DNA of 48,261 bases from a virus (IMGVR_UViG_3300033068_001142:1-48261); one strand, 5' to 3'. Positions 10,184 through 37,587 are shown, counted from the first letter of the stretch. The notes: generated from the letters alone by a model not told the origin. Made by a program: numbers and translations.

Positions 10184-10209
10184 CTTTTAAGTAACAATAC
10201 TGTACAATC
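10184..10209 (+). promoter_or_regulatory. Predicted late promoter upstream of the head genes
   Basis: TTTTAAGT then TACAAT at 10203-10208; AGGAGG RBS before ATG 10270. Confidence 0.45.
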
Positions 10210-10269
10210 CCTTAATAAGAATAGCTAACAAACGCTAATTCTAATAAATCAATAACTAGGAGGACTCAA

Positions 10270-10605
10270 ATGATGAGTAACCAAACAGCTGATATGGGAT
10301 TAACAGCAACAGAAATTAAGGAATATAACTACTGGGTAGGTATGAGACAGGCATTAGATAGATTAGAAGCTAATCCTGATTTTCAGAAAATTATCTTAGA
10401 AGGTTATTTTAGAGATAAAGCAGTTAACGGAGTTAGTTTATTAGCTTCACCGTTAGTTAAAAGAAACGGGTCAAGAGGTGATGTTTTCGAATCATTAGTT
10501 GCAATTAGTCAATTGCAAGATTACTTTATTACTATTAGAGATATGGGTGCAGAAGATACTGCTAATGATGAAGAAGATGAATCTGTAGACGAGATTGAAG
10601 GGTAA
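10270..10605 (+). CDS. N4 gp58-like protein
   Basis: ALDRLEANPDFQKIILEGYF motif; N4 order portal-gp58-gp57-MCP. Confidence 0.75.
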   Translation: MMSNQTADMGLTATEIKEYNYWVGMRQALDRLEANPDFQKIILEGYFRDKAVNGVSLLASPLVKRNGSRGDVFESLVAISQLQDYFITIRDMGAEDTANDEEDESVDEIEG

Positions 10606-10610
10606 GTATA

Positions 10611-14122: not shown

Positions 14123-14478
14123 TGGCTAGTAAGTTTATAATAAGTAAGGGTATGAGTAATGAGTTTATTATTACGATTAAGCAGGATGGTACTACATTAC
14201 CAATGGTAATTGACGCTGGGGATACTTTTGTTAGTAAGTTGTTTAAGATGAGTGATGGAAGTGTTGTGGCTACATTAGCTACTACTGTTGAAGATGCTAG
14301 TAATGGTAGGATTAAAATTGTTATTAGTGATAAGGTGGTTAATGGGCTAGATATTGAGCGAGGTGACAAAGCTGATTACTATTATGCTAAACCGTTGTAT
14401 AGATTAGCTATTGACTGTAATACGTTGAATAACGGTAAGTTTGTTGCTAAAGTTGATAAGGTGTACGTAGAATGGTAG
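14122..14478 (+). CDS. Tail/baseplate adaptor-like beta protein (BppU N-terminal-like)
   Basis: beta-rich; VEDASNGRIKIVISD pattern; precedes the giant tail protein. Confidence 0.4.
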   Translation: MASKFIISKGMSNEFIITIKQDGTTLPMVIDAGDTFVSKLFKMSDGSVVATLATTVEDASNGRIKIVISDKVVNGLDIERGDKADYYYAKPLYRLAIDCNTLNNGKFVAKVDKVYVEW

Positions 14479-17400: not shown

Positions 17401-20400
17401 TATATTTATGGTTTACTACCGCAAGTAAAGTATTAGCTAATGGTACTACTCAAGTATACGATATTACTAGAACATATAAGTATTCTGGTACTGTATGGAA
17501 TGAGATAACTACAGATAGTAACATCGTTGCCCTAGCAGATTTGGCTGATGGAAAAAGAACTGTTTTTAGTGGAAATACAGTGCCTGTTGGTTCTGTTGAC
17601 CGAGATATATGGATACCTAGTGCTGATGTTAGTATAACTACAAGTGCTATGTGTTCAGTTGCTAACGGTACTTGGAATGGTACTTCATGCAGTGTCTCAA
17701 AATATTATCAAGGAGAAGTTTATCAATTTAGTGCTACGGGTAAATGGATAGTGGCTACAAAATACACAGCAAATCTAGAAGCTGTAAGAACTAACTTACA
17801 AGGTCAGTTGGATGGTAAGGTAGAAACATACTATCAAGCTACAGTTCCTACTGGAATGACAGCTCTTAATAACGGAGACTATTGGTACTGTACTGCTGAT
17901 GTTAGTACCTACAAAAAAGGTAAAGTGTATAAGTATGTACATGCTACTACTTCGTGGGCTGAGACTGCAGACGTTAGTAGATATGCGTTTGATGTTGCAG
18001 ATGGTAAAGCTGCTATATTTTCTAGTACTAATCTTCCTACGTCAGGGTACAAAATAAATGATATGCTAATTGTAGTAGGGTCGTTTAATAATGGTACTAC
18101 AACCTTTGCTGATGGGGTTGTGCTTTCATCTACGGCTAATAGGACTTCTGGATTTACTCCTGCTGATTGGGTTAAAAAAATAAATGATACAGAAGACTTA
18201 GATGCGTTTGTTAGTGGTACATATACTCCTACAGTGACTAGTCTGCAAAATCAAGTAGATGGTAAAGTAGAAAGTTGGTTTCAGAATAGTACAAGTGATC
18301 CGAAAACTGCATGGACTGATGCAGCTACTAGAAGTAAGCACGATGGGGATTTATGGTATCAGTTAGACACTAATAGAAGTTACTGGTATAGTAGTAGTAC
18401 AAATGCGTGGAATTTGATTGATGATGAAAAAGCAATACAAGCATTAACTAATGCTGCTGCTGCTCAAACTTCAGCTAACAATGCACAGACTAGTGCTAAT
18501 ACTGCTAACAGTTTACTAGCGGATATAGCAAGTGATAACAAGTTAGTACCTTCTGAAAAAGTAGCTGTTAAGAAGGAGTGGGATATCATTCAAAGTGAGT
18601 ACACTAAGAACTGGGCACAGGGGAATGTTTATGGTGTTAGTACTAGTAGTTACACTAGTGCGTATAATTCATTGAGTGGGTACATAACACCGTTATTGAG
18701 TAGTTTGACTACTACTAGTGATATTGTTGGTACTACTTTTAGAAATATGTTTAAAGCGTACTATGATGCTAATGTTGATGTGCTAAATGCTGTGGCAAAT
18801 AAGATTAATGCTATTGCTGATGGTAAAATAACTAGTTACTATATTGATACTTTTAGCAGTTTACAAGCTTTAAGTAATGGTTGGACTACAGCTGAAAAGA
18901 CTAGTAATGTTGGGGATCTAGCTACTGTATGGAATGATAGTACGTTAGATAACAATGGGTTATGGAGATGGAATGGTACTAGCTGGGTTAGTGCTAGGGA
19001 TAAGAAGTTGGTGTCGATAGCTGGTGAAGTAACTAACTTGAGTACGGAGTTAAATAATGGTACTAACACTTGGGCAAGTGCTGATAGTGAGTTAGAGAAT
19101 AGCCTTAGGACAGAGATTAGTAGTGAAGGTGCTAGGGTAGAGAGTAAGTTTGCGTATAATAGTACGCTAGTGTTAAATGGAACATCTTATAGCAGTGGGT
19201 TTGGTATAGCAACTAGTTTGACAAGTGGTAGTGGTTTACCGACTGGTCAAAGTGAGTTTTGGATTAAGGCAGATAAGTTTAAGTTAATGAGTGCTGATGG
19301 AAGTAAGAAAAGTAGTTATAGTCCGTTTACTGTGGATAGTGTAACTGGGGAGATTAATTTTAATGGTAAGGTTAGCTTTAACAGTATCCCAAGATCACCA
19401 ACAAACATAATAGCTGAAACGTGGTCTGAAGGTAATGGATCTACACCATTATATAATATTGTTGGCTCATCTTATGAGAATGCCAGAATTTACATGAATA
19501 ATCCTAGTGGTCAGTTATCTGTTGTTTGGGCATGTATAGCTGATGGAACTGGAAACTCTGATGGTGGGTGGGATACTGTACCATTTCAAATAGATAGGAC
19601 AAAAACTTATAGGTTTTCTGTGTTCATTAAGACGAATCAAGCTAATGGTTCAAGTTATTTAGGGTGCGGTCCTAATACTGTTACAACTTTAAACAGCAGT
19701 ACAAAAGATGGAAACCCTTACTTTTGGTATGGTGACTTGCCTTCACAGAATGAGTGGTATCTACTAGTAGGGTATGTATACCCTAGTGGTAAAACTGGAT
19801 TAGTATCAAATGGTGGTATATATAGCTGTACAAATGGAAGAAAAGTAGCTAACACAACTGACTTCAATTGGGCTGCCGATGCTGTTAATAGTAATCATAG
19901 ATGCTACTTATACTATAGTGATTCACAGTTTACTAGGCAGTTTATGTATGACCCTAGAGTTGAGATGGTTGACGGTAATGAGCCATCTATACTTGATATG
20001 ATAAATACAACTAATGTTGGATATTCTCCAAGTGAGGTTGTGAGCTCTATTAACGGAGGACAGACTACAACGATTGATGGTGGTAAGATTACTACTGGGA
20101 GTATAACTGCATCACAAATAAATACGGTTGGGCTAATAGCTGAAAACATAAGTGCAAACGAAATAGTTGGAAAAACCATGACTGGAAGTATAATAAATGG
20201 TGCTTCAATAAATGGATCAGTTATAAAAACTAGCTATCTCGATCTAGACGGTGATTTAGAAGTACTAACGGACTACCACTTATGCACTTCTCAGTCACAA
20301 TTAGATGCGTTACTAACTTCTGGGGGTGACGGACGACTTGTAGGTTTTAACGATAAAGTTGAAAATGGTGGAGATGCTATCTTCATGGAAGCATCTAACG

Positions 20401-21083
20401 AATATAGGATACCAACACTTAGTTCTATATCTGAGCCTATTCAAACTTATACTGGAAAAGGTACAAAGACGTTAGTAGGTAGTATATTTCCTTACAATTA
20501 TACAACAGCTAATAGTAACCTTAAATCAAGAAAGAAACGGCCAACTATTACTGTTACTAATACCAGTGTGATATATTCTTCAAATAGTCTAGGACCTAAT
20601 GCGTACCTTGACTATAACGGTGGATACTACCCCCTTCTGCCTAATACACCAAACTTTGGCAATGGGAATGGGACATTAGTTGAGATATGGTTTGGAGGTG
20701 TTCTTCTTGTTAGGTTTGGGTCATACTATCCGTATGATATTACTCATAGATGTTATGTGTATGACGCGCTAACCCAGACTTATGTTGATGGAGGCATATA
20801 CCTTACATACAGCCCAGGTAGTTTAGATAAAACGCTTACATTAACTACATCTACTTTCGATGTAAAACTACATTATACAAGGGAGTATTCACAGTATTGT
20901 GATGGTGAGGGATGCTACTCTAGTTCAGGAGGTAGTTTAACATTATCTTTGCTTTCAAAATCATTTGTACTACCATTTGACTTTACATTTGGTAATTTAG
21001 AGATAAGAAGTATCTACTCATCTAATGAGGCAGATTTCAATTTAACAATTCCGTCTGGAATTATTATTAATAATATGATATAG
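14472..21083 (+). CDS. Giant repeat-built tail fibre/tail-tip protein (2203 aa)
   Basis: About 14 DGK-type repeats with P....GD(L/Y)W; DUF1983-like FWIKADKF..PFTVD..GEI segment; CBM-like C-terminal domains. Confidence 0.75.
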   Translation: MVEITNENGIEVIVSDPSIEADVVNLNELDIRVSKKEYTIVGDDIYIPKLYDDAPEWMKNLVQIVVDVSLETGNTDLINQLNSVLSEFATQYVPLNQYTQSILDLSNEDTRINAVIETLNSNYNDGISEANAQIIGLQLTKASKTEVVAQVLQTISAELQNDESNLGAVVARLDQAIADESSARAMSFETVMASMESLDGTVSGEASATSKLYAYVGYERDGSTTGTGLLADVQILQKQNDGVIETYTGTYDVMIGIEDPNNNTDNDQLDATKEPYASWIAEDTLNGNNAVRSSHTGDVFIKYSTSEFGYKTYIRAYKFIRTIPDATSPYSTDLEGFTWAVISDTDAQNAYIAALNALDLADDKRRVYVGLGTTTTPSVPYDQGDLWLIDAARTVNGYACKVGDILRCLESKGKVATYEENDWVLTSSYANAVAAEAAALETWKNTTYASTIATIQTQVDGKAETFYQSSIPTGRIKSINVPTNSTLDKYVGDLWKNTYVGTTGGYLGDNTEYIYTKTANGSNWNYDWTKMEVPDIVFDTIDTKKSIYSGNSLPVAVYPDVIELNDMWITGDTPVAPYVAKSIYVWSKTGSNPDTFRWVIPVKYTDDTATVALQTGLVNGTVIVNLASATIDGSKALTTYVAEEIDKEVVIYSGTNHATQTGMKSNDIYIEKTTAVSSSGITIDVVNTWKYNGSAWVQIGNNSNLTALADLTDGKRTIYSGTSLPINSTLNPLRPNDLFIPTSTFVANTITYTANEMYRYNGVSWEKATRYDEIKSLLQTQIDNKIETTYGGATPPYANRTNVAKDPRGGDYWYCDTDGAYLKGNVYKYTETANGSNFNYTWTLSSDVSKGAFDLADKKRIIFGNAGNSVPTLGEGLALADIWIPSSDGSIYLSGKVYKCTNLNPIAFVEVDYTNDEVVNGIISGTTPLDPNTITIGNINTTFLEYITAEIDGKVGVYSGETAPVNGQPSGVAVNDIYLWFTTASKVLANGTTQVYDITRTYKYSGTVWNEITTDSNIVALADLADGKRTVFSGNTVPVGSVDRDIWIPSADVSITTSAMCSVANGTWNGTSCSVSKYYQGEVYQFSATGKWIVATKYTANLEAVRTNLQGQLDGKVETYYQATVPTGMTALNNGDYWYCTADVSTYKKGKVYKYVHATTSWAETADVSRYAFDVADGKAAIFSSTNLPTSGYKINDMLIVVGSFNNGTTTFADGVVLSSTANRTSGFTPADWVKKINDTEDLDAFVSGTYTPTVTSLQNQVDGKVESWFQNSTSDPKTAWTDAATRSKHDGDLWYQLDTNRSYWYSSSTNAWNLIDDEKAIQALTNAAAAQTSANNAQTSANTANSLLADIASDNKLVPSEKVAVKKEWDIIQSEYTKNWAQGNVYGVSTSSYTSAYNSLSGYITPLLSSLTTTSDIVGTTFRNMFKAYYDANVDVLNAVANKINAIADGKITSYYIDTFSSLQALSNGWTTAEKTSNVGDLATVWNDSTLDNNGLWRWNGTSWVSARDKKLVSIAGEVTNLSTELNNGTNTWASADSELENSLRTEISSEGARVESKFAYNSTLVLNGTSYSSGFGIATSLTSGSGLPTGQSEFWIKADKFKLMSADGSKKSSYSPFTVDSVTGEINFNGKVSFNSIPRSPTNIIAETWSEGNGSTPLYNIVGSSYENARIYMNNPSGQLSVVWACIADGTGNSDGGWDTVPFQIDRTKTYRFSVFIKTNQANGSSYLGCGPNTVTTLNSSTKDGNPYFWYGDLPSQNEWYLLVGYVYPSGKTGLVSNGGIYSCTNGRKVANTTDFNWAADAVNSNHRCYLYYSDSQFTRQFMYDPRVEMVDGNEPSILDMINTTNVGYSPSEVVSSINGGQTTTIDGGKITTGSITASQINTVGLIAENISANEIVGKTMTGSIINGASINGSVIKTSYLDLDGDLEVLTDYHLCTSQSQLDALLTSGGDGRLVGFNDKVENGGDAIFMEASNEYRIPTLSSISEPIQTYTGKGTKTLVGSIFPYNYTTANSNLKSRKKRPTITVTNTSVIYSSNSLGPNAYLDYNGGYYPLLPNTPNFGNGNGTLVEIWFGGVLLVRFGSYYPYDITHRCYVYDALTQTYVDGGIYLTYSPGSLDKTLTLTTSTFDVKLHYTREYSQYCDGEGCYSSSGGSLTLSLLSKSFVLPFDFTFGNLEIRSIYSSNEADFNLTIPSGIIINNMI

Positions 21084-24266: not shown

Positions 24267-24602
24267 GTGCCGGAATTTAATTTAAGTGATTACATGAAAA
24301 TGAAAAAGGATTATGATGATCAATCTGCGTTGTGGGGATTGACAACCAATAAAGGACTGTCAGATATGAGTCAGGTAATGCCGTATTTTGGGACAGGTTA
24401 CGAAATAGGGAGTAGTCTATTTGGCGATAAAAAAGAAGACCGTAAGTTAAATAGGAATATTATGAAAGAGAACTTAGGTATGTTGAAAGAGCAGAGAGCA
24501 GCTAACCAAGAAATGCTAGGAAATAAGAGAAAGTTTAATGAGAATTGGGCTAATGCTAGTAATGGGTTAGCGGCTAGAGCAACAGAAGGTACAATAGTAT
24601 GA
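24267..24602 (+). CDS. N4 gp52-like small ejection protein
   Basis: GTG start after AAGGAG; Cys-free; ends NASNGLAARA; synteny. Confidence 0.55.
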   Translation: MPEFNLSDYMKMKKDYDDQSALWGLTTNKGLSDMSQVMPYFGTGYEIGSSLFGDKKEDRKLNRNIMKENLGMLKEQRAANQEMLGNKRKFNENWANASNGLAARATEGTIV

Positions 24603-26038
24603 TAGGAAATACTAGGTTTAAACCAGACTATAGTCAGGGACGTCCATATGATTACAATACGCAAAGTATTGGAGATATGCTGCTAGAAGCTGGTAAAATT
24701 ATGGGACAAAACTACCAGACTGGACTGGATAGAGCTGAGAGAGCTTATGAAGCAGAACAAAAAGCAAAACAGTATAACATAGAATTAGGGTTTAAGCAGA
24801 GAGCTGAGGATAGAGAAGTTGCTAAAGAGAATAGGGATAGACTTAAAGAGCAGTTTCAAGCTGATGCTGTTAGTGCTACTTTATATCCTAGTAGGTTTAA
24901 GGAAAGCAAATTAGCTGGAGAAAGAAGTGCATTAGAAGCGTCAATAGCAGGACTTCCACAAACAGAGAGGGAGGCTATACTGAAACAGTATAATCCAACT
25001 GTTAGTGGTAATCAGTGGGTGAGTAGTACATTAGCTAGTCCATATGTTAATCAAGCGGATTTAGTTAAAGCTAAGAGTGCTGACATGGAAATTAAGATTA
25101 AAGACCCAAATAGTGCTGAGTTTAAGGCATTACAAGATGCTGAGTTAGAATTAGCTAAAAGGAAAAATGCGATTGATGTATCTGGAAAGTTGGCTGTGCT
25201 AAATGCACAAAATGCCTTAGAGGAATCTAAAGAAAGGAAGAAAGAGGCTGGATTGAGAGATACGTACTCAGCGTTGATTACACCGACTACAAAAACTGTT
25301 GTGGCTAATGAGGAAGACATTAAAAATGCAAAGGTAACTCAAGACAATATAATGAAATTACAAGAAAAATATGGTGATAAGGTATTAGAGTTTTACGAAA
25401 AGAACCCTAGAGCTCAAAGCCTACCTGATAGCACAGCAGCTAGAACATATGCTAGAAATAGGTTAGGATTAAAGGAAGATCCGGTACTGAATACACTACC
25501 TGCCGAGAGGTTTGAGGAAGTTCCGAAAACTAGAGAGGAGTATATAAAGGATGTGTTTAGCAAAGTTAATCCAATAAAAGTTGGAGCAAGTGGGTTACAA
25601 ACGATAAATCAAAGAGTATCAGACCTGTATAAAGAAGATCCAAAGAAAATTGAAGAACGTAAAAAGGTAGCAGGATATACAGAACTGCTAAAAGGTATGA
25701 AAGTTGATGTACCTAGTACTGCTGACTCTAGTGTGCTTAAGAACCTGTACGAAAATGAAGTAGATAAGAGAAAAGAGGGATCAGGTGGATCTACTAAATA
25801 TGGACCAGGACCAAAAACACTTAACATGCTGAATACACTTGATATCGACACTGTTGGTATAGTTGGTGGTAATGATCAAAAGAAGATTATGGATATAGCA
25901 AGAGAGTATAAGATTACTGATGATGAACTAGCTAACATAATTTCAGCAGCTGATGCTGAAGGTATAACACCTGTAAGTAGTGGTACTGTAAGAGACGAAG
26001 TAATACAGTACATAAAAGATAACTACAAGAAAAAATAA
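24599..26038 (+). CDS. N4 gp51-like ejection protein
   Basis: 479 aa, helical, no Cys; immediately before the vRNAP. Confidence 0.55.
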   Translation: MIGNTRFKPDYSQGRPYDYNTQSIGDMLLEAGKIMGQNYQTGLDRAERAYEAEQKAKQYNIELGFKQRAEDREVAKENRDRLKEQFQADAVSATLYPSRFKESKLAGERSALEASIAGLPQTEREAILKQYNPTVSGNQWVSSTLASPYVNQADLVKAKSADMEIKIKDPNSAEFKALQDAELELAKRKNAIDVSGKLAVLNAQNALEESKERKKEAGLRDTYSALITPTTKTVVANEEDIKNAKVTQDNIMKLQEKYGDKVLEFYEKNPRAQSLPDSTAARTYARNRLGLKEDPVLNTLPAERFEEVPKTREEYIKDVFSKVNPIKVGASGLQTINQRVSDLYKEDPKKIEERKKVAGYTELLKGMKVDVPSTADSSVLKNLYENEVDKRKEGSGGSTKYGPGPKTLNMLNTLDIDTVGIVGGNDQKKIMDIAREYKITDDELANIISAADAEGITPVSSGTVRDEVIQYIKDNYKKK

Positions 26039-26107: not shown

Positions 26108-29100
26108 ATGGCTGACATATATAAAGAACTACTTAACACAGCTGCGTTAATGGATACTGACCCTACACCAGCTGATACAATTGCATTAAAGGCAATGACG
26201 TTAGAACAAAATAAACAATCAAAATTAAAAGCCTTAGGTGGGCTAAATCAAGGAAGTAACTTGAGTGAGAGTTACAGTTTGACTCCGCAAGGAAACCTTG
26301 AGTATAATAAAAATAAAATATGGAATGATGCTACCTCTGCGGAAGTACAAGGAATGTTAGGTGAAGCTGCAAGTAAATACCAAATATATCAAGATAATGG
26401 TAAATGGTTTCAAGGAACTGGTACTGATAAGAAAGAGTATACTGGAAATTTCAGTGATACACAGAGAGCATATATGTACGGTACAAAGGAAGACCCAAAT
26501 GCCGTAAAGTTTGGACTAGCTAGAGGTGATCTACCAAGCTCAGATTACAGGTATCTACCAGAACAAGCTACAAAAGAGGGTTATAGTACTGGAAAACGAG
26601 GCTACGGATGGGATGCAGGTGAACAAGGTGTAGACTTAGATAAAAAGTACATGGATATGGTATTGCCTAAAGATGTGGCTATCGCATTAGAAGGAGCAAT
26701 ACATGGAAGAACAAAAGCACTAGAGAATAGGGTGTACCCTAACATGCTTAGTGATAAAGGTGAGATAGGATCTGGAGCAAGTGAGTACTATACAAGTGCA
26801 GAAGGTATGTTAGGAAATACACAAGGATTAACTGCACAGGAGTTAAGTGTAGGGCAAGGTAAACTAGGAGAATATAGAAAAATTGTCCCAGTTGATGAGT
26901 ATGTTAGGCCTGACCTTAGCGGTGCTACCGACCTTGAATCATATAGCAAGTCTGGGAGTAAGTTGTCTTACGAGGATTGGGCTAACAGAGGTGATCAAAG
27001 AGATTCGGATGGTATTGATGCTTTACAGGTAGGTGCTGCAAGATGGTGGGGTAAAACTCAAGAAGCTGCAGGAGAATTGCTGAAAAGCTTAGCTGAACAA
27101 GATAAAGAATTTCTGGGAAAAGAAGATGCTAGGCTTAAAGAAAAATACAACGAGAAGGTATCTGAGTTTAGGAAATCATTTAACGAGGGGATTAAAGAGG
27201 CTGGTGAGTATCTGACTAAAAGAGGAGAATTCGTTAAGGATAATGCTTCAGAATATTACGGTTACAACGATGCGGGAAGTAAGACAGCTAAAGCAGTATG
27301 GGGCGAACTGAAACAAGGGAATGTGGTTAAGGCACTAGAGAATGTAAGTACAGAAGGTGTACTTGGGTTAGTGGCTGAATCACTACCAGAAAGGGCTATG
27401 TACTATAGCCCAACTACGTTGTTAACATCGTACGCAGGAAATGTAGCAGAAGCTAAGAAAGAGGCTGAAAAGATTGCGGGTGGTGAGATAAGTACTGGAA
27501 GAATGTCAGCTATACTGATTGGGGAAGGGTTGAGCATTGCATTGGATAAAGCAGTGTTTGATGGAATTATCTCACCTGCAAAAGCTGGGGATGTGATTGA
27601 AAAAGCTGCGGAGAAGTTAGCAGGGACAGTACCAAATGTGTTGTTGAGTGCATCGGTTAAATATGCAACAGATAAAGTTACAAGAGTTGCAGGAGCAGTT
27701 GCAGCTGAAGGTACACAAGAGGTGTTACAAGAAGGGCAAAGAATTGCAACTACACAACTTGGACAAAAAGACGTACTGACAGAAGAGAACTTAGATAGAC
27801 TAGGGGAGTCGCTAGTTGGTGGTGGATTAGCAGGTGGAGCTATGAGAGGAGGAGTTGAGACAATATCAACTGCTGGTGATGTGTTGAGAGGACCTTCAAG
27901 TGAACTACAAGCTAAAAGACTAGAAGAGCTAAAAAGTAAAACTAAGGAAGAAGTAAAGAATAACATGGAGTCTAGCTTGGATATGACTGGGTCAGTTGAG
28001 TTAGGTGAAGCAGATAGAGAAGTTGAAAGCACACTCGGAGTGGATTCAGTTAGCAGAATGTACAATGATTCAAGTAACGTAGATGAGATGTTAGCTAAGA
28101 TGAATGAAGCTAAGAAACAAATCTTGGCAGATGTGTATGAGTATGATGAAGCTACAGATAAATTTACAGGAGTGAAGGATGTTAGCAAGCTTGACAAGGT
28201 AGAAAAATGGTTTGAAGACTATGGGACTTTCCAAGCAGATGTGACAGGTAAAATACCTGAGAATATTCAAGATGAGATTGACCATATAAAGAAAGCCAAT
28301 CAAACATTTAAGACAGCTGAGACTGTCGGGGAAAGTGTTACGGGTATGGTTAAAGATAAGTTAGGGACTATGGAAGGACTTAGCGAAGAAGAGAAGATAA
28401 GTAATATAAATAAGCAAATCGATGATGTGATTAATACGTATAAGTTTGACGAAAAAGTACCTGGAGCTAAGGCAGCAATAACAAGAAAAGTTATGCAAGC
28501 ATATGAGCTATCAGGAATGGCAGGACTAGGAAATGGGATTAACCTTGAGATAGATAAAGATGTGTTAGAGAGTCAAGTTAAAGAAACGGCAGGAATTAAA
28601 GCTGGAACAACTGGACAAAGACTTACAAGTAGAGACGGAAAAGTAGTTGAAGTTGGAAGTGTAGCGAATGAAGAGTTGATGGGTATGTTGAGTGGAGAAG
28701 GTACAAGCTTCCCAGCAGATCACCCAAATACAAAATTCAGAAATACAGTGGTTAAGAAATTAGACCCACAAGAAGCGTTTAACGTTACAAGTGCATTGAC
28801 TGAAGTTGGAAGTAAAATGAATGAAGCTGCGGATAGAAATATCGGAGAAGCTGGAAGATACTTCAAAGGAGGGGATGTAAAGGGTAACATGGTTAGACTT
28901 ATGACTGTGGTAGCTAACGCAATTAACAGTCAAGTTGAGTCAGATACAGACTTAAGGTCGAATACAACTGGAAGTGATAGCTCATTAAGGTCTGGAGAGT
29001 ATTGGGCAGGATTGAACAATGTGTTGGAGCAAGCAGGTAAAGATTACGCAAGTACATATGGGTTAAGATTGACTGGAAAAGATAAGGTTGCATTAGCTAA

Positions 29101-32100
29101 AGCACATAGAGATTTAGGGAGGTTTGGAGTTAAACTGTTAGAAGATGCAGGTATGGTTGAGATTACGAATGACAACATGTGGTCGATAGCAGGTGAGACT
29201 GTAGGAGCTGACGGTAGGCAAATATCAACGCTGAATACGAAAGGTGTAAGAGTATCAAAAGGTAAAGATACACTAACAGATGAAAATGTGACATTGGTTA
29301 TGGATAAAGGTATCAGACTGGTTGACAGTATCAAAGAAGTAGGTGCAAGACCTGACAATGAGCCAGTGAGTAGGTATGGAGATGCGATTAAGAGAGTAGC
29401 TAAAGTGATGTTACCTAATGCAAATAGGGTGCCAGCGACTGAGTATGTTGACAGCAACATCAAACACGATGAAGATATAGAGATTGATGAGATTACAACT
29501 GAAATATTGAAAAGAAAAATGAAGACTCCATTTAAAATGAAAGGTGGAGTATTTGGAAAAGTGTTAGAGTATATAAGAGGTATAAACGATAAGGATGAGT
29601 TAAGAGCTGAGATTAAAAAGTCGGCAGAATTAAGAAGATTCCTTGGGCTAGAGGAAAGTGGGAGTGAGCTGTTGAAAGTGAATGACAAGGGAAGTACGAT
29701 GAGCAAGTTTGACAACTTGGTTGGAATACTGGATAACTTGGATACACTTAGCAATCCAGAAGGTGTATATTACACATTCCAAGTGGATATAAATGACAGA
29801 TTTACGGTTAGAGAAACAATAGCGAATTACCAAAGTGACAAAGTATATGCAAGAGCACTGATGGCAATTGGTGCATATAGAACTAAGACTAAAGAAGGTA
29901 AAGATATATTGGTATACAGCTTAGCTGATGAGTTAAAGTCTAAAGATGATAAAGAAATGAGCGATTTAGAAGCTGTGCTAAAATATGCAGATATATATAA
30001 ACAGATTGAAGAATTAGCGAATGGAGACACTAGAAATCTGATTGAGATTATAGCAAATACAGCTAAAGAAGGAAAAGCTTTAGCACACTTAAAAGGATTA
30101 GGGGGAATTAGAATCTTGAGTTTACTTGAGGGAGCTAAGGACATACAAAAAGCTATGAAACCAGATGGAACGTTAGGAGATGTGGTTACAGAGTATATAC
30201 CAGAGAAAGATGCAAGTGCGTCTGGAGTATTTAACGTTACGATGAATATCGCAGGTAGAAATAAAGAGTTTTCGAAACAAAGGTTGATGGAGCTTGGAGT
30301 TACATTTGGTGATGAAGGAGCTAAAGAGACGAGAGATGCGTATAAGATATTGGGTGACTTGATTAAGAAGATGTTAGATAAGACTGTTGAGGTTGATGAG
30401 AGTATCGGATTACCAAAAGGTGGTGAAGATCTGATTGCGGTAAGAAGAATAAACGATGCATTAGCTGATGACAAGTTGATGAGACAACTGGCTAAATATC
30501 CGATTATGACTTGGTTTTACTCAGCAAGAGAGAAATCGATTAAAGAGAACTTGACTAGCGAGATGACGCAAGTATTGGTGGAAAGAGCGTTAGAAGGTGA
30601 CACTGGGGTGTTGAAGTACCTGTCGGATGTAATGGGTAGAGAAATTACAGCAGATAACGTTAAGTATATCAAGAAGGGTGACAAAGACCACAAAGCACTG
30701 AGAAAAGAATTGAATAAGATTGGTAGTGTATATTACAGCTACCTACAAGAAGCGTTTCCAGAGGTACAAGAGACTAAAGATGAAATGGCTGAATACTTTG
30801 AGTTTCTGACTAAGAACAGTGTGATTGACGGTAAGGATTACTGGGAAGGTAGAGTAAGAACTGGGCTTGGAGCTGTGCATGGTACGAATACAACAATGAG
30901 TCTATATAAGTGGAAAAATCAAGCAATTGATATGAGTGAGCAAGAAAAGATAGATAGAGGATTAGCTACAAAAGATGAAGCTGCATCACTGATTACAGTT
31001 AGAAATAGAATGCCAAATGAGACATCACTGATGGCACTGTTAGCTCACAATGCGGATGCTGCAGAAGCAGCGGCAATGTTGGATGGAGTAAGTGACGGTG
31101 TTGCAGTACAGTCGAAACATGATGGATTTAGCAGTAGCCCAGATGAGTTGATTAAAGGTCAAAAGAAGGCTGAAAAAGCTGCGAAAGAAGTGGCGTTGAA
31201 GTATGACTTCATCGAGGAAATGGCATGGACTATGGAACAAACAGCGAATAGAATGGAAGAGGCATTAGCAGATGCAACGCCTGAAGTTAAGAAAAAGCTG
31301 GAAGTAGCGATGAAGAAGTTAGATGACAAAGTAGCAGCGATAAGAGAAAAGAATAAGCCGAGACTAGAAGCTAAAGCTGAATTGCTGAAAGATGCTGAAA
31401 CAAGCCTGTTTGGAAAAGAAGGGTATGTGAAGCAAGAAGAAGAAGTTGCGGTTGAGGAAGAAGTAAAAACACCAGAAGCTGTGAAAGAAGAAGCAGTTGA
31501 AAAGGTATATGAGAATATATTGGATGTGATTACAGATATGGATACAGCAGATGAGAGAAAAGTAGATATCTTAGCTAACAAAGACAATGTGAAGATTGTG
31601 ACTGTGAATGCGGAAGTTGAGGCGATGTTACGTAAAAAAGGTAACAAAAGTATCAATGAGTTTCTGAAAAATGGTGGATCGTTTACGTATAACGGGACGG
31701 TGTATATCGGTAAGAAACTGATGAAAGGTATCGATGAGGTTAGTGGTAAGAGAGTTACGGCTGAGCAGATACTGGATACGGTAGCACATGAAATTGAACA
31801 TGCAGTAGCAGATAAGTATATAAGCAAAGAGCATAAGGGTGAGATTAAAGCTGAGTATGATAAGATTGTGAGTATATTAGAGAAAGCGAGTATGAGTGAG
31901 AGGGTGCCAAGAATGTCTCCAAGGGCTAGAAGCAGAATGGAGTATGTGATTGACATGACGTTAGCTGGGAATAAGATGCAAGCAGTGAAAGAGCTTGTGG
32001 CAATGGGTAGAGAGGATACAGTGTTTGCTGAAGTTATGGAGAATCTGAATAAGATGGCTGGAATACAAGGAAACTTTGTGGAAAGAGTGATTAAGAAGAT

Positions 32101-32476
32101 TTGGAATAAGGTTCAGGAGCTGATGGCTAAGACTCCAGTTAAGGAATTGCTGAAAAATACGGATGTGTATAGCTTAGGAATTGCAATAAGAAGTATACAA
32201 GATAAGGCTAGAGGTATTGAAAATAAAGGAATTGGTAAGGCAAATGCTGGTACAATTGCAGATAAATATCCAAACCCGTTTGATGAAGATTTCGTGAGTG
32301 GGTTAATGGAAAATAAAGTAGAGTCTAAGCAAGAAGAAGCTATACTACAAAAAGAAGATAGTGCTTTAATCGATGAAGCAGTAACTACTATTAATAAGCT
32401 TATAGATAATGGTTCTGGAAAAGCTTATAAAAAGTTATTAGAAGCAATAATAAAAGATATAGAAGGATGTAAATAA
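26108..32476 (+). CDS. Virion-encapsidated single-subunit RNA polymerase, N-terminal plus catalytic part (N4 gp50-like), with zincin HExxH
   Basis: DINDRF..NYQSDK (DxRGR/NPQ-like, about aa 1226), motif A EKDASASG (about 1368), motif B RQLAKYPIMTWFY (R-x3-K-x7-Y, about 1459), motif C KHDGF (about 1672), TVAHEIEH..VKELVAM. Confidence 0.88.
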   Translation: MADIYKELLNTAALMDTDPTPADTIALKAMTLEQNKQSKLKALGGLNQGSNLSESYSLTPQGNLEYNKNKIWNDATSAEVQGMLGEAASKYQIYQDNGKWFQGTGTDKKEYTGNFSDTQRAYMYGTKEDPNAVKFGLARGDLPSSDYRYLPEQATKEGYSTGKRGYGWDAGEQGVDLDKKYMDMVLPKDVAIALEGAIHGRTKALENRVYPNMLSDKGEIGSGASEYYTSAEGMLGNTQGLTAQELSVGQGKLGEYRKIVPVDEYVRPDLSGATDLESYSKSGSKLSYEDWANRGDQRDSDGIDALQVGAARWWGKTQEAAGELLKSLAEQDKEFLGKEDARLKEKYNEKVSEFRKSFNEGIKEAGEYLTKRGEFVKDNASEYYGYNDAGSKTAKAVWGELKQGNVVKALENVSTEGVLGLVAESLPERAMYYSPTTLLTSYAGNVAEAKKEAEKIAGGEISTGRMSAILIGEGLSIALDKAVFDGIISPAKAGDVIEKAAEKLAGTVPNVLLSASVKYATDKVTRVAGAVAAEGTQEVLQEGQRIATTQLGQKDVLTEENLDRLGESLVGGGLAGGAMRGGVETISTAGDVLRGPSSELQAKRLEELKSKTKEEVKNNMESSLDMTGSVELGEADREVESTLGVDSVSRMYNDSSNVDEMLAKMNEAKKQILADVYEYDEATDKFTGVKDVSKLDKVEKWFEDYGTFQADVTGKIPENIQDEIDHIKKANQTFKTAETVGESVTGMVKDKLGTMEGLSEEEKISNINKQIDDVINTYKFDEKVPGAKAAITRKVMQAYELSGMAGLGNGINLEIDKDVLESQVKETAGIKAGTTGQRLTSRDGKVVEVGSVANEELMGMLSGEGTSFPADHPNTKFRNTVVKKLDPQEAFNVTSALTEVGSKMNEAADRNIGEAGRYFKGGDVKGNMVRLMTVVANAINSQVESDTDLRSNTTGSDSSLRSGEYWAGLNNVLEQAGKDYASTYGLRLTGKDKVALAKAHRDLGRFGVKLLEDAGMVEITNDNMWSIAGETVGADGRQISTLNTKGVRVSKGKDTLTDENVTLVMDKGIRLVDSIKEVGARPDNEPVSRYGDAIKRVAKVMLPNANRVPATEYVDSNIKHDEDIEIDEITTEILKRKMKTPFKMKGGVFGKVLEYIRGINDKDELRAEIKKSAELRRFLGLEESGSELLKVNDKGSTMSKFDNLVGILDNLDTLSNPEGVYYTFQVDINDRFTVRETIANYQSDKVYARALMAIGAYRTKTKEGKDILVYSLADELKSKDDKEMSDLEAVLKYADIYKQIEELANGDTRNLIEIIANTAKEGKALAHLKGLGGIRILSLLEGAKDIQKAMKPDGTLGDVVTEYIPEKDASASGVFNVTMNIAGRNKEFSKQRLMELGVTFGDEGAKETRDAYKILGDLIKKMLDKTVEVDESIGLPKGGEDLIAVRRINDALADDKLMRQLAKYPIMTWFYSAREKSIKENLTSEMTQVLVERALEGDTGVLKYLSDVMGREITADNVKYIKKGDKDHKALRKELNKIGSVYYSYLQEAFPEVQETKDEMAEYFEFLTKNSVIDGKDYWEGRVRTGLGAVHGTNTTMSLYKWKNQAIDMSEQEKIDRGLATKDEAASLITVRNRMPNETSLMALLAHNADAAEAAAMLDGVSDGVAVQSKHDGFSSSPDELIKGQKKAEKAAKEVALKYDFIEEMAWTMEQTANRMEEALADATPEVKKKLEVAMKKLDDKVAAIREKNKPRLEAKAELLKDAETSLFGKEGYVKQEEEVAVEEEVKTPEAVKEEAVEKVYENILDVITDMDTADERKVDILANKDNVKIVTVNAEVEAMLRKKGNKSINEFLKNGGSFTYNGTVYIGKKLMKGIDEVSGKRVTAEQILDTVAHEIEHAVADKYISKEHKGEIKAEYDKIVSILEKASMSERVPRMSPRARSRMEYVIDMTLAGNKMQAVKELVAMGREDTVFAEVMENLNKMAGIQGNFVERVIKKIWNKVQELMAKTPVKELLKNTDVYSLGIAIRSIQDKARGIENKGIGKANAGTIADKYPNPFDEDFVSGLMENKVESKQEEAILQKEDSALIDEAVTTINKLIDNGSGKAYKKLLEAIIKDIEGCK

Positions 32477-35400
32477 TGAAGTGTAAAATAGGTGAAGCAA
32501 TAGAAAAAATAGAGAATCTTATTGATAAACCAGCTATTAAAAACTCTGCTGATACTCTAGCAGAACTAGAAAGAGTTAAGAGATTCCTTAACTCAGCTAG
32601 GGAGATAAAAATGTCTAAAATACAAAGTAGCACATCTCCAGAATTTATTGAGTTTCAAAAAGAAAATAATAATGAGTATGATTCTGAACTTGATACAAGT
32701 ATAGCTAATAAGTTAAAATCTATATACAAAGACATAGAAGTAATTTACTTGAGTGGTCAGAATGAAATGAGAGCTGTACTAGAAGAGCTTGGTGGAGATA
32801 TAGCTTTATTTCAGCTATCTAAAAAAAGAAAAGAGGAATTTGAGAAGAAGTTAAGAAAAGCTAGGCCAGAATTAGATAATACTAGTTTAGATAAAATACT
32901 TAGTAGTATTGAAGAGTTTAGCGAGACTGAAGCAAATGGTAATGAAAAGTTGATGAAAAAACTAGAGTTATTGGCTCTACATTGGACAATCAAAGGTAAC
33001 GTGATTCTTCCTGAAGACAGTGAAAAGGTCATGTCAGCTTTAAAAATAGCAGATAAAAATAAATTTGATCCATTTAACTATGATAGCCCAAATGATATAA
33101 ATAATGCATTTAGTCCTATAAGTGAAAAAGAATCTACTATAGATCCAGACACTTTTCTTAATAAAGGTTTTAGCAATAAACGTGAAATAGGTAATGGAGT
33201 AGTTACCTATGACGTTGCTAATACTGAAACTGGAAGAGAATCTTCTAGAAAAATAATGGATAGTCACTATGATACTAACTTTAATCCTTGGTGTTTATTG
33301 TTTAGGGATAGCTATGGTCTCACAGAAAATAGTAGTAAAATGTGGTATGAGCAATACCCTGGAAATAAAAAGATAGCTTTTAAAGATGGTAAATTGATCT
33401 CGTTTTATGGTGGTGATAAGTGGTGGGATATCCACGATGCTCCTCATAAAGGAATACCTATCATAAATAGAGGAAAATTTATAGAAGGGGAAAATAGGGT
33501 TAGAGAGTCTTCTATTGTCGATGAAAATGATGCTAATAAAGTTATAGCTGTAAATGGTTATGAACTAGGTGTTAATAAACCTGGAAATGAGTATAAAAAA
33601 TGGGATAAAGATAAAAATCTTTTATTACATATTACAAAAGATGGTACAAAAATAGCAACAGATTTTGATGGTAAAATCTCTACATTGTATCCTGATGGTT
33701 CTGGTATTATAGTATTTTCTAACGGTAAGATCCATAAAAAAGTTTTAAAGGACGGTTCTTTCACAACTTGGAATGAAGATGGTAATGTAATAGCTGAGTA
33801 CAAAGTTGAAAAAGGCTATACTAAATGGTTTAGTAATGGTACTATAAAAGAGACTGGTGATTCCCCATACTCTGATAATAACGTAAAAATATATTATGAA
33901 GATGGTTCCTTATATGAGGAAAAAATAGATTATACCACTTATAAGAGATATGATAAAAAAGGTTTTTTAGTTGATGTTTCGTATCCAAATAAATATAGAT
34001 TGAATGGATTGGACTATTTGGGGAGTGTATCCTATAACTCAGAAAATACTGAAAAAACTATTATTGTGGATTATTCTGAAAGAAAGTTTGATAAGTATAT
34101 TCAAAAAACAGTTGTTAGTAAAGATGGTACAATAAAAATATATAAAAAAAATTCTGATGATAAAGTAGATGAAATAATATACCCTGATGGCAGTGCAGAG
34201 ATGTATGACACTAGAGGAAGAATAATTCAAACTATTAGTAAAGACGGTGAAATTGAAGTTAAAAAATATGGTATTCTTGATAATATTAAAAGTTTTATTG
34301 GTTTTCAAAAAACGGATGATATAATAAAAGGGGCTGCTGTAATTAATAAGAAAAAAATACTTATTGATATTGAAAATAGATCTACAGATACATTAGCTCA
34401 TGAGTATGCACATTTTTATATAGCTGCATTCAGAGATACACCGATAGTTCAAGAAGCTATAAAGAAATGGGGTAATGAAGAAGCTTTAGTACAGGCTATT
34501 GGGGAGCAGGTAGTTAAGCAAAAAGGTGAAGTTTATAACTGGTGGAAACAGTTTAGTAAATGGATAAAAGACTTATTTGGTAGCCTAAATAAAGCCACTA
34601 AGGAAGAACTTGTTCAATTATTAACTGATGCGTTTTTAACAAATAGAGATATTAGTGCTGAGACTAAGATGAACGATGACGGAAGTATCACAGTAGCGAC
34701 ATTGGACGGTGTATATACGTTTGAGAATGGAAGTGAAAATAGCAGAAATACGTACAAAGGTAAGAGTGTTAGCATGCCGATTATGAAAGACATTGAGATG
34801 CAAGCTAGCGCTGAACTGAGTGGATTTACAGTTCCGTTTAACGTGTTATCGAGTCAAGCGAATAAGTGGGCAAGTGACTACCTAGTGGTTGGACTATCAG
34901 AAAAAGCTGGAGGTGTGTTAAAGCCATTGGTGATGAAAGCACATGCAAAAGCTAAGCAGAAGAACAGTATGTATAGAAAGACTGTGAATTTGATAGCAGA
35001 AGGGTATAGGGATTCAGAATTGCTGGCTAAGATAAGAGTGATGTTGAAAGTAACTGGAGATATCGATGACAAAAAATTAGCAGAAGTGATGACAGTGGCA
35101 TATAACAACGCTAGAATGACTAAAGAGGTGTTGGATACGAAATTGCCTGAATTGGATAAGTGGATAAAAAGAGAGTTGAGAGATGCTAAAGATAGGAAGA
35201 ATCTGAATGACATATTTGGAAGAAGTGGATTTATGCATTTGATGGACAATCCAGATGTGATTGGAGCACTGTACAGTGGAGAGACAGATGTAGATAAGCT
35301 GATAGCGAAGATACCTGCAAGTAAGTTACAGATGGAAGAAGCTGAAGCACTAAAAGAATATCTGATAGAAGGTAAAGTTAGCAATACTGGAAGAACAAAC

Positions 35401-37587
35401 GGAAATGGAAGTAAGACGGTAGAACAACTTGCAGCTCTGTTAGCTTTGAAGGATGAAGGACGTATGGATACGTTAGTTAAACTAAGAAGTAAGCATTTGG
35501 ATCTGTATGAAGAGATGCTGATGTTAAGTGGGATGGTTAAGAGCTTGCATGAAGTGGTGTATAGCGGAAGAAGAAACGCTGTAGGAACTGGAAGTGGAAG
35601 AGTATATACAGGGTATGACAGTCACGGAATGATGGATGTATATGAAGGAACTCACGAGTATAAATATGTGACTAAAGAAGAGCTGAATGGGGTGTTGAAG
35701 GATCCAAGATGGAAAGTGATTAGAACACCAGAGAAAGATGTGATTGGGATTGTAGCGAGAGAGAGTTTGAATAGCTACCAAGAAGGTATCGGATTAGACA
35801 AAGATGTGATTAGAAATGGGATTGCATTGGACAAGGATTTCGTGGAAAGTAACGTGTTAGGAAAAGGTGCAGAATGGTTAGCTAAGAATAACATCGTGTC
35901 AGATACAGATAACGGATATACGAGATATAGGGTGGTGCTAACAGCTGAAGAAAGAAGTGCGAATGGGTATATGGATAACGTTGCACATACGCTGTACAGA
36001 ACATGGGTACATAACGCACAAGTAGTGGAAATGCAAACGGTACAAGGAATTGTGACTGAAAGTATGACAGCACAAGGTGAGACTGGATTAAAGGATATGG
36101 AAGCTACGATAAAAAGAAATAACATGGTTGATGCAGATAGAAGGAGAGAGGTTAAACCGTTTCTGGATATGGAGATTAGCTATGAAGAAATGAAAGAGAA
36201 ATATCCGGAAGTATATAAGAGGTATACACCTGTGAAAAATATAAGCAACTATGCCGATATGAGAAGAAAAGTTACATATGTAAGAAAAGATATGGAAGAT
36301 ATATTGATTGGGTATAGTACTGGAAGTATATTCAAGGATGATAGCACGTTTGGAGTTGGATTACAGAGAATAGAGACAGTGTATAAGCAGTTGGTTCAGA
36401 TGTTGAAGTTGAAATTGGTGGTTGCAAATCCAGCTAAGTTAGCGATGGATACATTGAGTAACACAACGTTGCTGATGTCGATGGATGTAGGAATTGACGA
36501 GATTGCAAAAGGATTCCCAAAAGCACTGAAGTATGCAAATGAGATGAGTGGGATTGAGAGTAGGTTAGTGGTTGCGAAGATTGGATTAGCAAGAGCAGAA
36601 GCTACAGGAAAAGATACAAGAAAAGCTAAAGCAGAAGTTGAAGCAGTGATGAAAGAAATGGAAAGACATCCGTTTTACCCAGCGATTAAGAATGGATTTA
36701 TCCAGTCACAGGGTACAAGCATGTTGGTAAAAGAATATGACACGATTTCAGGGCTACAGAAGACGATTGACGATGTGGTTAAGATGGTTGTGGCAGATGA
36801 GAAAGGAAATCCAAATAAAATGCATGCTGCATTGGTGTGGATGATGAATGCAGGATTTGGGATAGATGATATATTGAATAGCGTTAGCAATATGAGTAAA
36901 GTTAAAGGAACAACATTTGGAGAAGAACTTGAAGGAATTGCAAAAAGACTAGAAGAGAAGAAAGGGAAGGATGTAATCCGAGCAGAAGAGAAGAGACTTG
37001 GAAGAAAACTGACAGAAGATGAAATTAGGGAGATTGAAAAGGATGCCGACACAGTAAGATATGTTAGCGAATTCATTGCAGCACCTAGTTCCGAGTTGGT
37101 TAGACAAGGGTCACGTGTGATGCAAATGGCAGATATAATGTCTAGATGGACGATGTATACGCATGAGATGAGTAAAGGATTGAAAGAGATTGGGTATACA
37201 TATGAGAATGAGTATAAGGCGCAACAGGATATCAAAGCAGGTAAGCTGGACAAAGCTAAGTACGATAAGATAGAATCTGATGCAGCGATTAAGGCACTGG
37301 ATACGTTTATAGATTATAGGATGAATATGCCTAGAGAGGTTAAGATGTTGAGTGATTTAGGAGTGCTGATGTTTCCAGCGTTCTGGATACGAGCACAGAA
37401 AGTGATATATAACTTAGCTAAGTACCATCCAGTGAATGCAGGGGCAGGGCTACTGCTTACAGATATGTTAGGGTTGAATGGTGCATCGATTGTGGATGCT
37501 AACTTTGTGAATAAGATGATGAATGGGACATTGGTACAAGGGGGACAGAATGTCTTAGACCCTGGTACTGTCATCCTCGGATTGTAG
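32476..37587 (+). CDS. vRNAP C-terminal-region homolog as a separate gene, with a polyvalent-type insert (zincin, PWCL domain, MORN-like repeats)
   Basis: C-terminal LKLVVANPAKL..LSN, QMADIMSRW.MY.H and FIDY..MLSDLGV.MF..FWIR..V resemble the recalled N4 gp50 C-terminus; TLAHEYAH..EEALV. Confidence 0.7.
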   Translation: MKCKIGEAIEKIENLIDKPAIKNSADTLAELERVKRFLNSAREIKMSKIQSSTSPEFIEFQKENNNEYDSELDTSIANKLKSIYKDIEVIYLSGQNEMRAVLEELGGDIALFQLSKKRKEEFEKKLRKARPELDNTSLDKILSSIEEFSETEANGNEKLMKKLELLALHWTIKGNVILPEDSEKVMSALKIADKNKFDPFNYDSPNDINNAFSPISEKESTIDPDTFLNKGFSNKREIGNGVVTYDVANTETGRESSRKIMDSHYDTNFNPWCLLFRDSYGLTENSSKMWYEQYPGNKKIAFKDGKLISFYGGDKWWDIHDAPHKGIPIINRGKFIEGENRVRESSIVDENDANKVIAVNGYELGVNKPGNEYKKWDKDKNLLLHITKDGTKIATDFDGKISTLYPDGSGIIVFSNGKIHKKVLKDGSFTTWNEDGNVIAEYKVEKGYTKWFSNGTIKETGDSPYSDNNVKIYYEDGSLYEEKIDYTTYKRYDKKGFLVDVSYPNKYRLNGLDYLGSVSYNSENTEKTIIVDYSERKFDKYIQKTVVSKDGTIKIYKKNSDDKVDEIIYPDGSAEMYDTRGRIIQTISKDGEIEVKKYGILDNIKSFIGFQKTDDIIKGAAVINKKKILIDIENRSTDTLAHEYAHFYIAAFRDTPIVQEAIKKWGNEEALVQAIGEQVVKQKGEVYNWWKQFSKWIKDLFGSLNKATKEELVQLLTDAFLTNRDISAETKMNDDGSITVATLDGVYTFENGSENSRNTYKGKSVSMPIMKDIEMQASAELSGFTVPFNVLSSQANKWASDYLVVGLSEKAGGVLKPLVMKAHAKAKQKNSMYRKTVNLIAEGYRDSELLAKIRVMLKVTGDIDDKKLAEVMTVAYNNARMTKEVLDTKLPELDKWIKRELRDAKDRKNLNDIFGRSGFMHLMDNPDVIGALYSGETDVDKLIAKIPASKLQMEEAEALKEYLIEGKVSNTGRTNGNGSKTVEQLAALLALKDEGRMDTLVKLRSKHLDLYEEMLMLSGMVKSLHEVVYSGRRNAVGTGSGRVYTGYDSHGMMDVYEGTHEYKYVTKEELNGVLKDPRWKVIRTPEKDVIGIVARESLNSYQEGIGLDKDVIRNGIALDKDFVESNVLGKGAEWLAKNNIVSDTDNGYTRYRVVLTAEERSANGYMDNVAHTLYRTWVHNAQVVEMQTVQGIVTESMTAQGETGLKDMEATIKRNNMVDADRRREVKPFLDMEISYEEMKEKYPEVYKRYTPVKNISNYADMRRKVTYVRKDMEDILIGYSTGSIFKDDSTFGVGLQRIETVYKQLVQMLKLKLVVANPAKLAMDTLSNTTLLMSMDVGIDEIAKGFPKALKYANEMSGIESRLVVAKIGLARAEATGKDTRKAKAEVEAVMKEMERHPFYPAIKNGFIQSQGTSMLVKEYDTISGLQKTIDDVVKMVVADEKGNPNKMHAALVWMMNAGFGIDDILNSVSNMSKVKGTTFGEELEGIAKRLEEKKGKDVIRAEEKRLGRKLTEDEIREIEKDADTVRYVSEFIAAPSSELVRQGSRVMQMADIMSRWTMYTHEMSKGLKEIGYTYENEYKAQQDIKAGKLDKAKYDKIESDAAIKALDTFIDYRMNMPREVKMLSDLGVLMFPAFWIRAQKVIYNLAKYHPVNAGAGLLLTDMLGLNGASIVDANFVNKMMNGTLVQGGQNVLDPGTVILGL

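Follow-up and report, generated by a model that had tools for sequence, protein, structure and literature searches.

The giant RNA polymerase that phage N4 packages in its virion and injects into the host (gp50; Schitoviridae carry comparable virion RNA polymerases, e.g., DEV gp71) is a single 3500-aa chain without cysteine (Cys), and it has been proposed to pass as beads on a string through a channel of ~35 Å, with two flexible linkers at residues 907-1007 and 2102-2123 (PMC13434306). The suppression of Cys in such ejection proteins has been published and was ascribed to their crossing of the disulfide-forming periplasm (PMC11445570). In phage vB_AmaP_AD45-P1 (AD45-P1), the virion RNA polymerase consists of two polypeptides, ORF127 and ORF126, and gels of virions revealed both, one at 270 kDa and the other at 175 kDa; the authors observed cysteines, not their positions, and inferred that the Cys-bearing piece is not injected (Garcia-Heredia et al. 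2013, PMC3821669). Here, we analyzed a 48,261-nucleotide stretch of viral DNA (IMGVR_UViG_3300033068_001142:1-48261, hereafter the window), in which a polymerase of this kind, as read from the genes, appears to be encoded in two consecutive open reading frames (ORFs). Unlike the uninterrupted chain of N4 gp50, this chain is split at the gene level and carries a lone Cys at each broken end, and comparisons with relatives strongly supported a functional pairing of these two residues. Full-text literature searches retrieved no paper on terminal cysteines or disulfides linking polymerase pieces.

The split polymerase and its cysteines

Piece 1 (P0001, 2122 aa; 26108-32476, on the plus strand, as are all features of the two pieces and the two small ORFs given below) and piece 2 (P0002, 1703 aa; 32476-37587) meet in a TAATG stop/start overlap (32474-32478), in which the TAA of piece 1 occupies 32474-32476 and the ATG of piece 2 occupies 32476-32478. 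The sole Cys of piece 1 is residue 2121 (TGT, 32468-32470) of a chain ending in ..IEGCK, and piece 2 starts with MKCK, its Cys3 codon (TGT) lying at 32482-32484; both codons were the same in four runs. The only other Cys of piece 2, Cys273 (33292-33294), belongs to an invariant NPWCLL motif in the interior of the protein. Each side of the interface is marked by a single pairable Cys at the facing end. In total, three Cys were found in the 3825 residues of the two pieces, against ~30 expected at the mean of ~0.8% in the other window ORFs of at least 150 aa. As in N4, two small Cys-free ORFs precede the polymerase, one of 111 aa (24267-24602) at the gp52 position and one of 479 aa (24599-26038) at the gp51 position, both placed by gene order alone. 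N4 gp50, gp51, and gp52 themselves contain no Cys. The original prediction had read the lone Cys of the 2122-aa protein as penultimate (..EGCK), the 1703-aa protein as starting with MKCK and holding one further Cys (PWCL), and the gp51- and gp52-like proteins and the N4 polymerase as Cys-free; the ORF sequences bore this out, in the case of the small proteins for the ORFs at those positions.

The split is real and not an assembly error, because the TAATG junction is identical in the independent assemblies L001 and L002, and contigs of three further runs span it without any indel, the sole change being AAA to AGG (K2122R) with both TGT codons kept. In the window, the hexamer TGTAAA stands on either side of the junction, 8 nt apart. 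This repeat would suit an explanation in which the Cys are functionless, either as a by-product of the split (a duplicated TGTAAA, an intein or mobile-element footprint) or because the two ORFs are joined by frameshift or bypass, and a hop from AAA to AAA would indeed land in the frame of the second ORF. However, the repeat is specific to the window and not conserved, as L001 and the three other runs read TGTAGG..TGTAAA; the other junctions described below differ in sequence, frame, and spacer; conservation of the terminal Cys reaches relatives at 24% identity and spans two phage orders, which a relic could not do; and gels showed the AD45 polymerase as split polypeptides (PMC3821669). We regard this explanation as very improbable. 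Three related candidates were tried and rejected: a split intein, as there is no intein-sized segment by either Cys, the Pfam search showed no Hint domain, and the Cys lies 1-4 residues from the end of piece 1 with only 2-6 residues before the Cys of piece 2; a programmed frameshift or bypass, as the AAA/AAA match occurs only in the window (AGG elsewhere) and frames and spacers vary among junctions; and an RNA-level motif, as the junction sequences are unrelated.

Several lines of comparison identified the two ORFs as successive parts of one N4-type polymerase of the injected kind. The phrog_2206 profile (virion RNA polymerase) matched residues 1547-1686 of piece 2 with its positions 3272-3383 of 3406 (E 1.3e-19), which relates the C-terminal domain to the C-terminal (encapsidation) domain of virion RNA polymerases. 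Piece 1 comprises an N-terminal region, a putative polymerase core, an HExxH region, and the tail discussed below as part of a coupler; strings that we read as T7-type polymerase motif-like occur at 30200-31129, namely PEKDASASGVFN (residue 1365), RQLAKYPIMTWFYSA (1459), and VQSKHDGF (1667), and a zincin-like HEIEH motif occupies residues 1894-1898 (31787-31801). Its residues 694-1795 align at 31% identity with P0059, a fused protein of 3528 aa that combines the polymerase core and the C-terminal domain (42% identity) in one chain with 0 Cys. Pfam showed no family in P0001 and none above the cut-off in P0002; PF00940 was found in the P0001 homologue P0046, and PF21867 in the homologues P0054 and P0056. 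Neither BLASTP searches with P0001, P0002, P0003, and P0059 nor the C-terminal-domain profile gave a significant match to N4 gp50, so it is the PHROG profile, together with gene order, that ties these pieces to N4. A DNA search of the phage collection and a scan of viral contigs with P0002 found no close relatives, and cultured phages gave weak matches only, from Alteromonas podoviruses, which places this phage at a distance from the cultured ones. Packaging in the virion is known from relatives, by gels for AD45-P1 (PMC3821669) and by mass spectrometry for phi14:2 and crAss001.

Piece 2 is a natural fusion that joins, in frame, a middle cargo module (residues 1 to about 722) to a conserved C-terminal domain. 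The former contains a second zincin-like motif, HEYAH (residues 642-646, 34399-34413). Relatives encode the latter as a separate protein of 1057 aa, and the body present here (34640-37587) is equivalent to about residues 76-1057 of that protein; it is without the MANRC-bearing head and is 97% identical to P0003 from residue 84 onward. Elsewhere in the window, the major head protein (394 aa, 11815-12999) has one Cys, 5 residues before its C-terminus. A 2203-aa tail protein (phrog_23593, 14472-21083) holds 15 Cys, unlike the adjoining Cys-free giants, as would be expected if Cys avoidance is limited to ejected proteins.

Facing cysteines in relatives

To compare the broken ends, 15 junctions were read in 11 N4-like loci (the window, L001, L003, L004, L006, L008, L009, L010, L016, L017, and L022), including those of the cultured Alteromonas phages AD45-P1 and PT11-V19. 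All 15 were paired, the upstream chain having a Cys among its last 1-4 residues and the downstream chain having one at position 3-6, and L011, the nearest relative, obeyed the same pairing after its miscalled start was corrected to MANRC. The outer ends of the trains, at the start of the first piece and at the end of the last, never carry a Cys. In PT11-V19 (..IMCNGK at the upstream end, MHKPNC.. at the downstream start) and L017 (..AKVC, MPKC..), the chain is cut after ~1000 aa, and in the window, AD45-P1, and many others it is cut after about 2050-2500 aa; the three-piece trains L001, L006, and L008 carry two Cys pairs each. The Cys rule therefore tracks the gene break and not a given domain. 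By piece lengths only, with no alignment to gp50, the two cut positions resemble the two linkers of that protein. The Cys codon can be TGT or TGC, its neighbouring residues differ among junctions, and adjacent genes either overlap or leave a spacer of 0-10 nt, a variation that points to selection acting on the amino acid. AD45-P1 follows the rule (..SKHCKQ at the end, MTICTNP.. at the start, each Cys being the sole one of its protein); it shares the split polymerase with the window and differs in having no middle cargo module and no cassette swap.

The pattern extended to the families of both pieces. Among 23 homologues of P0001 (35-97% identical, 2028-2868 aa), every one has a Cys in its last 3 residues, which is the sole Cys in 20 of them, and 16 end in ..(I/L/M)C; across 25 first pieces, 25 of the 28 Cys fall in the last 3 residues. 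For the downstream side, a profile of the C-terminal domain was run against 1.84 billion cluster representatives (50%-identity clusters) and recovered 503 relatives, some of 3000-3500 aa; the following counts refer to the best 150 of these 503, with 237,053 residues. Their Cys lie almost exclusively at positions 3-7 (88/91, of which position 3 accounts for 44 and position 4 for 30), and the Cys frequency outside those positions is 1.3e-5. For M-started proteins of 1500-2999 aa, a Cys at position 3-7 occurs in 56 of 70, as the sole Cys in 54, and for those of 800-1500 aa it occurs as the sole Cys in 29 of 42. These family-wide counts exclude chance as the source of the terminal-Cys pattern.

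The original prediction had proposed that terminal Cys should be conserved in split orthologues and lost in fused ones, and both expectations agreed with the comparisons. Besides the junctions and first pieces counted above, the M-started C-terminal pieces of 800-2999 aa number 112, of which 85 carry the head Cys and the other 27 have 0 Cys. On the fused side, 0 Cys was found in 4/4 proteins of at least 3000 aa and in ten of 2641-2931 aa among the best 150 relatives, so that fourteen unsplit relatives (P0059 and 13 other representatives of at least 2641 aa) are Cys-free, as is N4 gp50. Some pieces that appear to lack the Cys are products of gene calling or of truncation. In L011 (12232-12247), P0016, P0019, and P0020, the called start is at an internal Met (MLITAVP..) and misses MANRC with its Cys; because gene callers often skip the real start, database counts of Cys-free pieces are too high. 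Three Cys-free short C-terminal pieces were checked, and two of them are incomplete, since P0143 borders a gap in its scaffold and P0137 continues past the end of its contig; P0153, the remaining one, is taken up below. A tree of the C-terminal domain requires 11 or more changes among three architectures, namely fused proteins without Cys, a stand-alone C-terminal domain that bears a Cys, and a Cys-bearing combination of polymerase and C-terminal domain. On this tree, fused Cys-free proteins stand beside split Cys-bearing ones, e.g., in P0059/P0060 (support 98) and P0086/P0088 (support 99).

We also compared crAss-like phages, which belong to another phage order and whose polymerase core is, according to the literature, of another type, marked by the DFDxD catalytic motif known from multisubunit RNA polymerases. 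Their cargo resembles that of the window in consisting of giant virion proteins with facing-end Cys: in four such phages, Cys occur at the facing ends of three RNA-polymerase cargo proteins. In phi14:2, g067 ends in ..NTIC, g066 starts with MACK and ends in ..QECK, and g065 starts with MSCK; g066 and g065 hold no further Cys. In crAss001, gp47 ends in ..LRCNS, and gp50 and gp49 start with MSKRC and MAKKC. The crAss001 gp47 gene lies on the strand opposite to those of gp50 and gp49 (L018 1119-19723), and the Cys order gp47 > gp50 > gp49 equals that of the collinear g067-g066-g065 of phi14:2. The cargo proteins of this kind are considered to be ejected partly unfolded, and crAss001 virions contain disulfides, in the tail (PMC10172136). 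Terminal Cys are not mentioned in the gp66 preprint or in the crAss001 atlas (PMC10172136).

A single-acting role of the terminal Cys, through another virion partner, through dimers of like with like, or through sensing of the reducing cytoplasm, should be considered here. Several copies per virion would make same-with-same pairs sterically possible, and ~6 copies of each RNA-polymerase-associated protein were offered for crAss001 as an example that fits the capsid volume (PMC10172136). Nevertheless, the Cys are confined to ends that face another piece and are absent from outer ends, from unsplit proteins, and from the ORFs at the gp51 and gp52 positions, and a role independent of a partner should show in fused polymerases too. 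We consider such a role improbable.

Exchange of the junction cassette

The DNA flanks of the window are 96% identical to those of L011, in which a 2325-bp cassette of the window (32315-34639, delimited by these flanks) is absent. Instead, L011 has 253 bp encoding the junction ..VDPIC / MANRCMLITAVP... The cassette brings a 53-aa tail (KVESKQEE...LLEAIIKDIEGCK, i.e., KVESKQEE..IIKDIEGCK; residues 2070-2122, 32315-32473), which is co-inherited with the downstream head, followed by the TAATG overlap and a middle module with the MKCK start, a domain with the invariant NPWC, MORN-like repeats, and the HEYAH motif. It is 93-95% identical to L001. An ancestral junction (..PIC/MANRC..) thus gave way to the cassette, which supplied a pair of tail Cys and head Cys of its own. 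Thus, the earlier placing of the Cys at a polymerase split point holds insofar as the split is real, and needs amending insofar as this junction is cassette-borne and not ancestral.

Further comparisons suggested that the parts around a junction behave as a unit. The same ~53-aa tail and MKCK head sit on two unlike upstream bodies in the window and L001, and in three runs loose read ends at 32309 showed this alternative upstream context of the tail. L001 encodes the middle module on its own, as a 961-aa protein with the end ..KKACLK, after which comes MAECK.., and in L022 the same tail/head pair joins the first piece straight to the C-terminal domain. L022 and L001 have one long stretch in common, of 366 bp over the junction (52-aa tail, 9 nt, 66-aa head); their other similarity comprises just two short patches of 55 and 86 bp. 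In this one measured case, a tail of ~50 aa, the stop/start, and a head of ~65 aa form a coupler that recombines as a unit. The similarity between the window and L001 ends exactly at the start of that coupler, and the C-terminal domain of the window lacks its first ~75 residues; hence, the in-frame fusion inside P0002 amounts to the removal of an entire coupler along with the two Cys that it carried. Taken together, the comparisons of the window, L001, L011, and L022 indicated that couplers are gained, swapped, and lost as units. Two coupler types open with the same block, K[VE]ESKQEEAI, 85% identical over 55 nt (window 32309-32330; L022 7563-7617; L001 8016-8070), and this shared block at the left edge of the tails may be a recombination point. 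L001 also has ~175 extra residues relative to the window between the HEYAH motif and an EEALVQAIG block (10187-10710), and this stretch is a further insertion point inside the zincin-like region.

The middle "cars" of the trains are variable multi-domain cargo proteins (window 32476-34639; L006 10001-12991). The NPWCLL domain of the window (33030-33510, P0002 residues 185-345) keeps its Cys also in P0010, P0023, P0024, and P0025. No other internal Cys is tolerated in this injected protein, and this Cys may be catalytic. An AlphaFold2 model of the NPWC domain (pLDDT 64) gave no credible fold match among the AFDB clusters (best E 0.06, TM 0.36 or less). In L006, P0023 carries a NADAR domain (46.8 bits, above the Pfam cut-off) ahead of the NPWC/MORN/HEYAH module, and delivery of a NADAR enzyme by injection would suit a countermeasure taken in advance against ADP-ribosylating defences. 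Tentatively, couplers may be portable ends with matched docking and covalent linkage, which would let at least two phage orders cut, re-join, and extend the injected thread, keeping the cargo pluggable and the ejection ordered; we find this conceivable, though short of probable. On this reading of the couplers, the NPWC/zincin module of the window and the NADAR-domain module of L006 would be examples of pluggable cargo.

Proposed joining of the pieces for ejection

Injected N4-type polymerases exclude Cys except at gene-level breaks, where one Cys lies among the last 1-4 residues of the upstream piece and another at position 3-7 of the downstream piece. In the reading that we propose, the pieces would be packaged together, and the two thiols would then form a head-to-tail inter-chain disulfide, restoring one beads-on-a-string chain that could be pulled through the ~35 Å channel of the tail and ejectosome. 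The terminal position of the Cys would matter because a terminal link could pass nearly linear and avoid the bulky branch point that an internal link would create. On arrival in the cytoplasm, host thiol reductants could cut the link. In our judgment, it is rather likely that a head-to-tail disulfide restores one chain for passage through the tail. The original prediction of a disulfide between the two chains thus stands firmly in its functional pairing, and in a conditional form for the disulfide itself, the time of its formation, and its reduction after entry, which we infer.

A comparable arrangement is known from AB toxins such as diphtheria toxin and the clostridial neurotoxins, in which one disulfide holds two chains together during passage through a narrow channel and cytosolic reduction frees them. 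The chains of these toxins come from proteolytic nicking of one polypeptide, and their disulfide is not at the extreme termini; the likeness to the split polymerase is a functional analogy only, with no homology.

The zincin-like motifs near the junctions raise a different reading, in which the terminal thiols bind metal, possibly the zinc of the nearby HExxH domain, as a clasp and/or to keep a peptidase latent until ejection. HExxH lies 160-265 residues from many junctions (e.g., window residue 1894, L003, L004, crAss001 gp47, and the heads of L001, L006, L008, and phi14:2 g065), and the reducing cytoplasm would permit a metal link but not a disulfide. However, the pieces of AD45-P1 keep the Cys pair without any HExxH, the motif is ~1086 residues from the junction in PT11-V19 and L017, N4 gp50 has HELVH and no Cys, and two thiolates alone make a poor zinc site. 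Such a metal clasp seems unlikely to us. A zincin with a cysteine switch is disfavored in the same way, as HExxH and the Cys do not always accompany each other (AD45-P1, N4 gp50).

Several points weigh against a disulfide-restored chain. Sequence alone fits a disulfide, a metal bridge, or another thiol link alike and cannot distinguish among them. Assembly takes place in the reducing cytoplasm, so oxidation would have to come late, in the capsid or after release, and the conserved internal Cys273 of the middle module could scramble the disulfide. A complex prediction for the tail of piece 1 (2000-2122) and the head of piece 2 (1-200) gave a score of 0.00, with both folds uncertain, and counts neither for nor against the link. 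The C-terminal-domain tree was built with FastTree only, and the test of independent pairs gave 3-4 pairs in the expected way and 0 in the opposite way (p ~0.125), too few pairs for significance. In L014 (1-420 of a 4.3-kb contig), P0153 represents a split without Cys on either side, an upstream ORF ending in ..RAQANV overlapping by 8 nt an ORF that starts with MSEFTAIL; this may be a genuine exception or, equally well, a fused gene interrupted by an assembly indel. Among the crAss-like phages, the C-terminal Cys of crAss001 gp50 lies 9 residues before the end and the protein has one internal Cys in addition, and DAC17 and cr111_1 are alike in pattern with a few internal Cys.

How a polymerase of at least 400 kDa passes through a phage tail of ~35 Å is the question that these loci address, and phages whose thread is encoded in pieces offer a natural test of the 2026 beads-on-a-string proposal for N4. 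The terminal-Cys rule predicts that the string is restored covalently, at the chain ends, and would reverse the published reading of AD45, in which the Cys-bearing piece is not injected. It also provides a rule for annotation, as a lone facing-end Cys would identify successive members of an ejection train, also where their genes are on opposite strands, which is the case in crAss001. If the couplers dock specifically, this would explain the hitching of variable cargo enzymes, and they might serve as protein-ligation tags that are opened by reduction. If the proposal is true, couplers would represent train coupling at the protein level, a general means of delivering megadalton cargo through a 35 Å channel.

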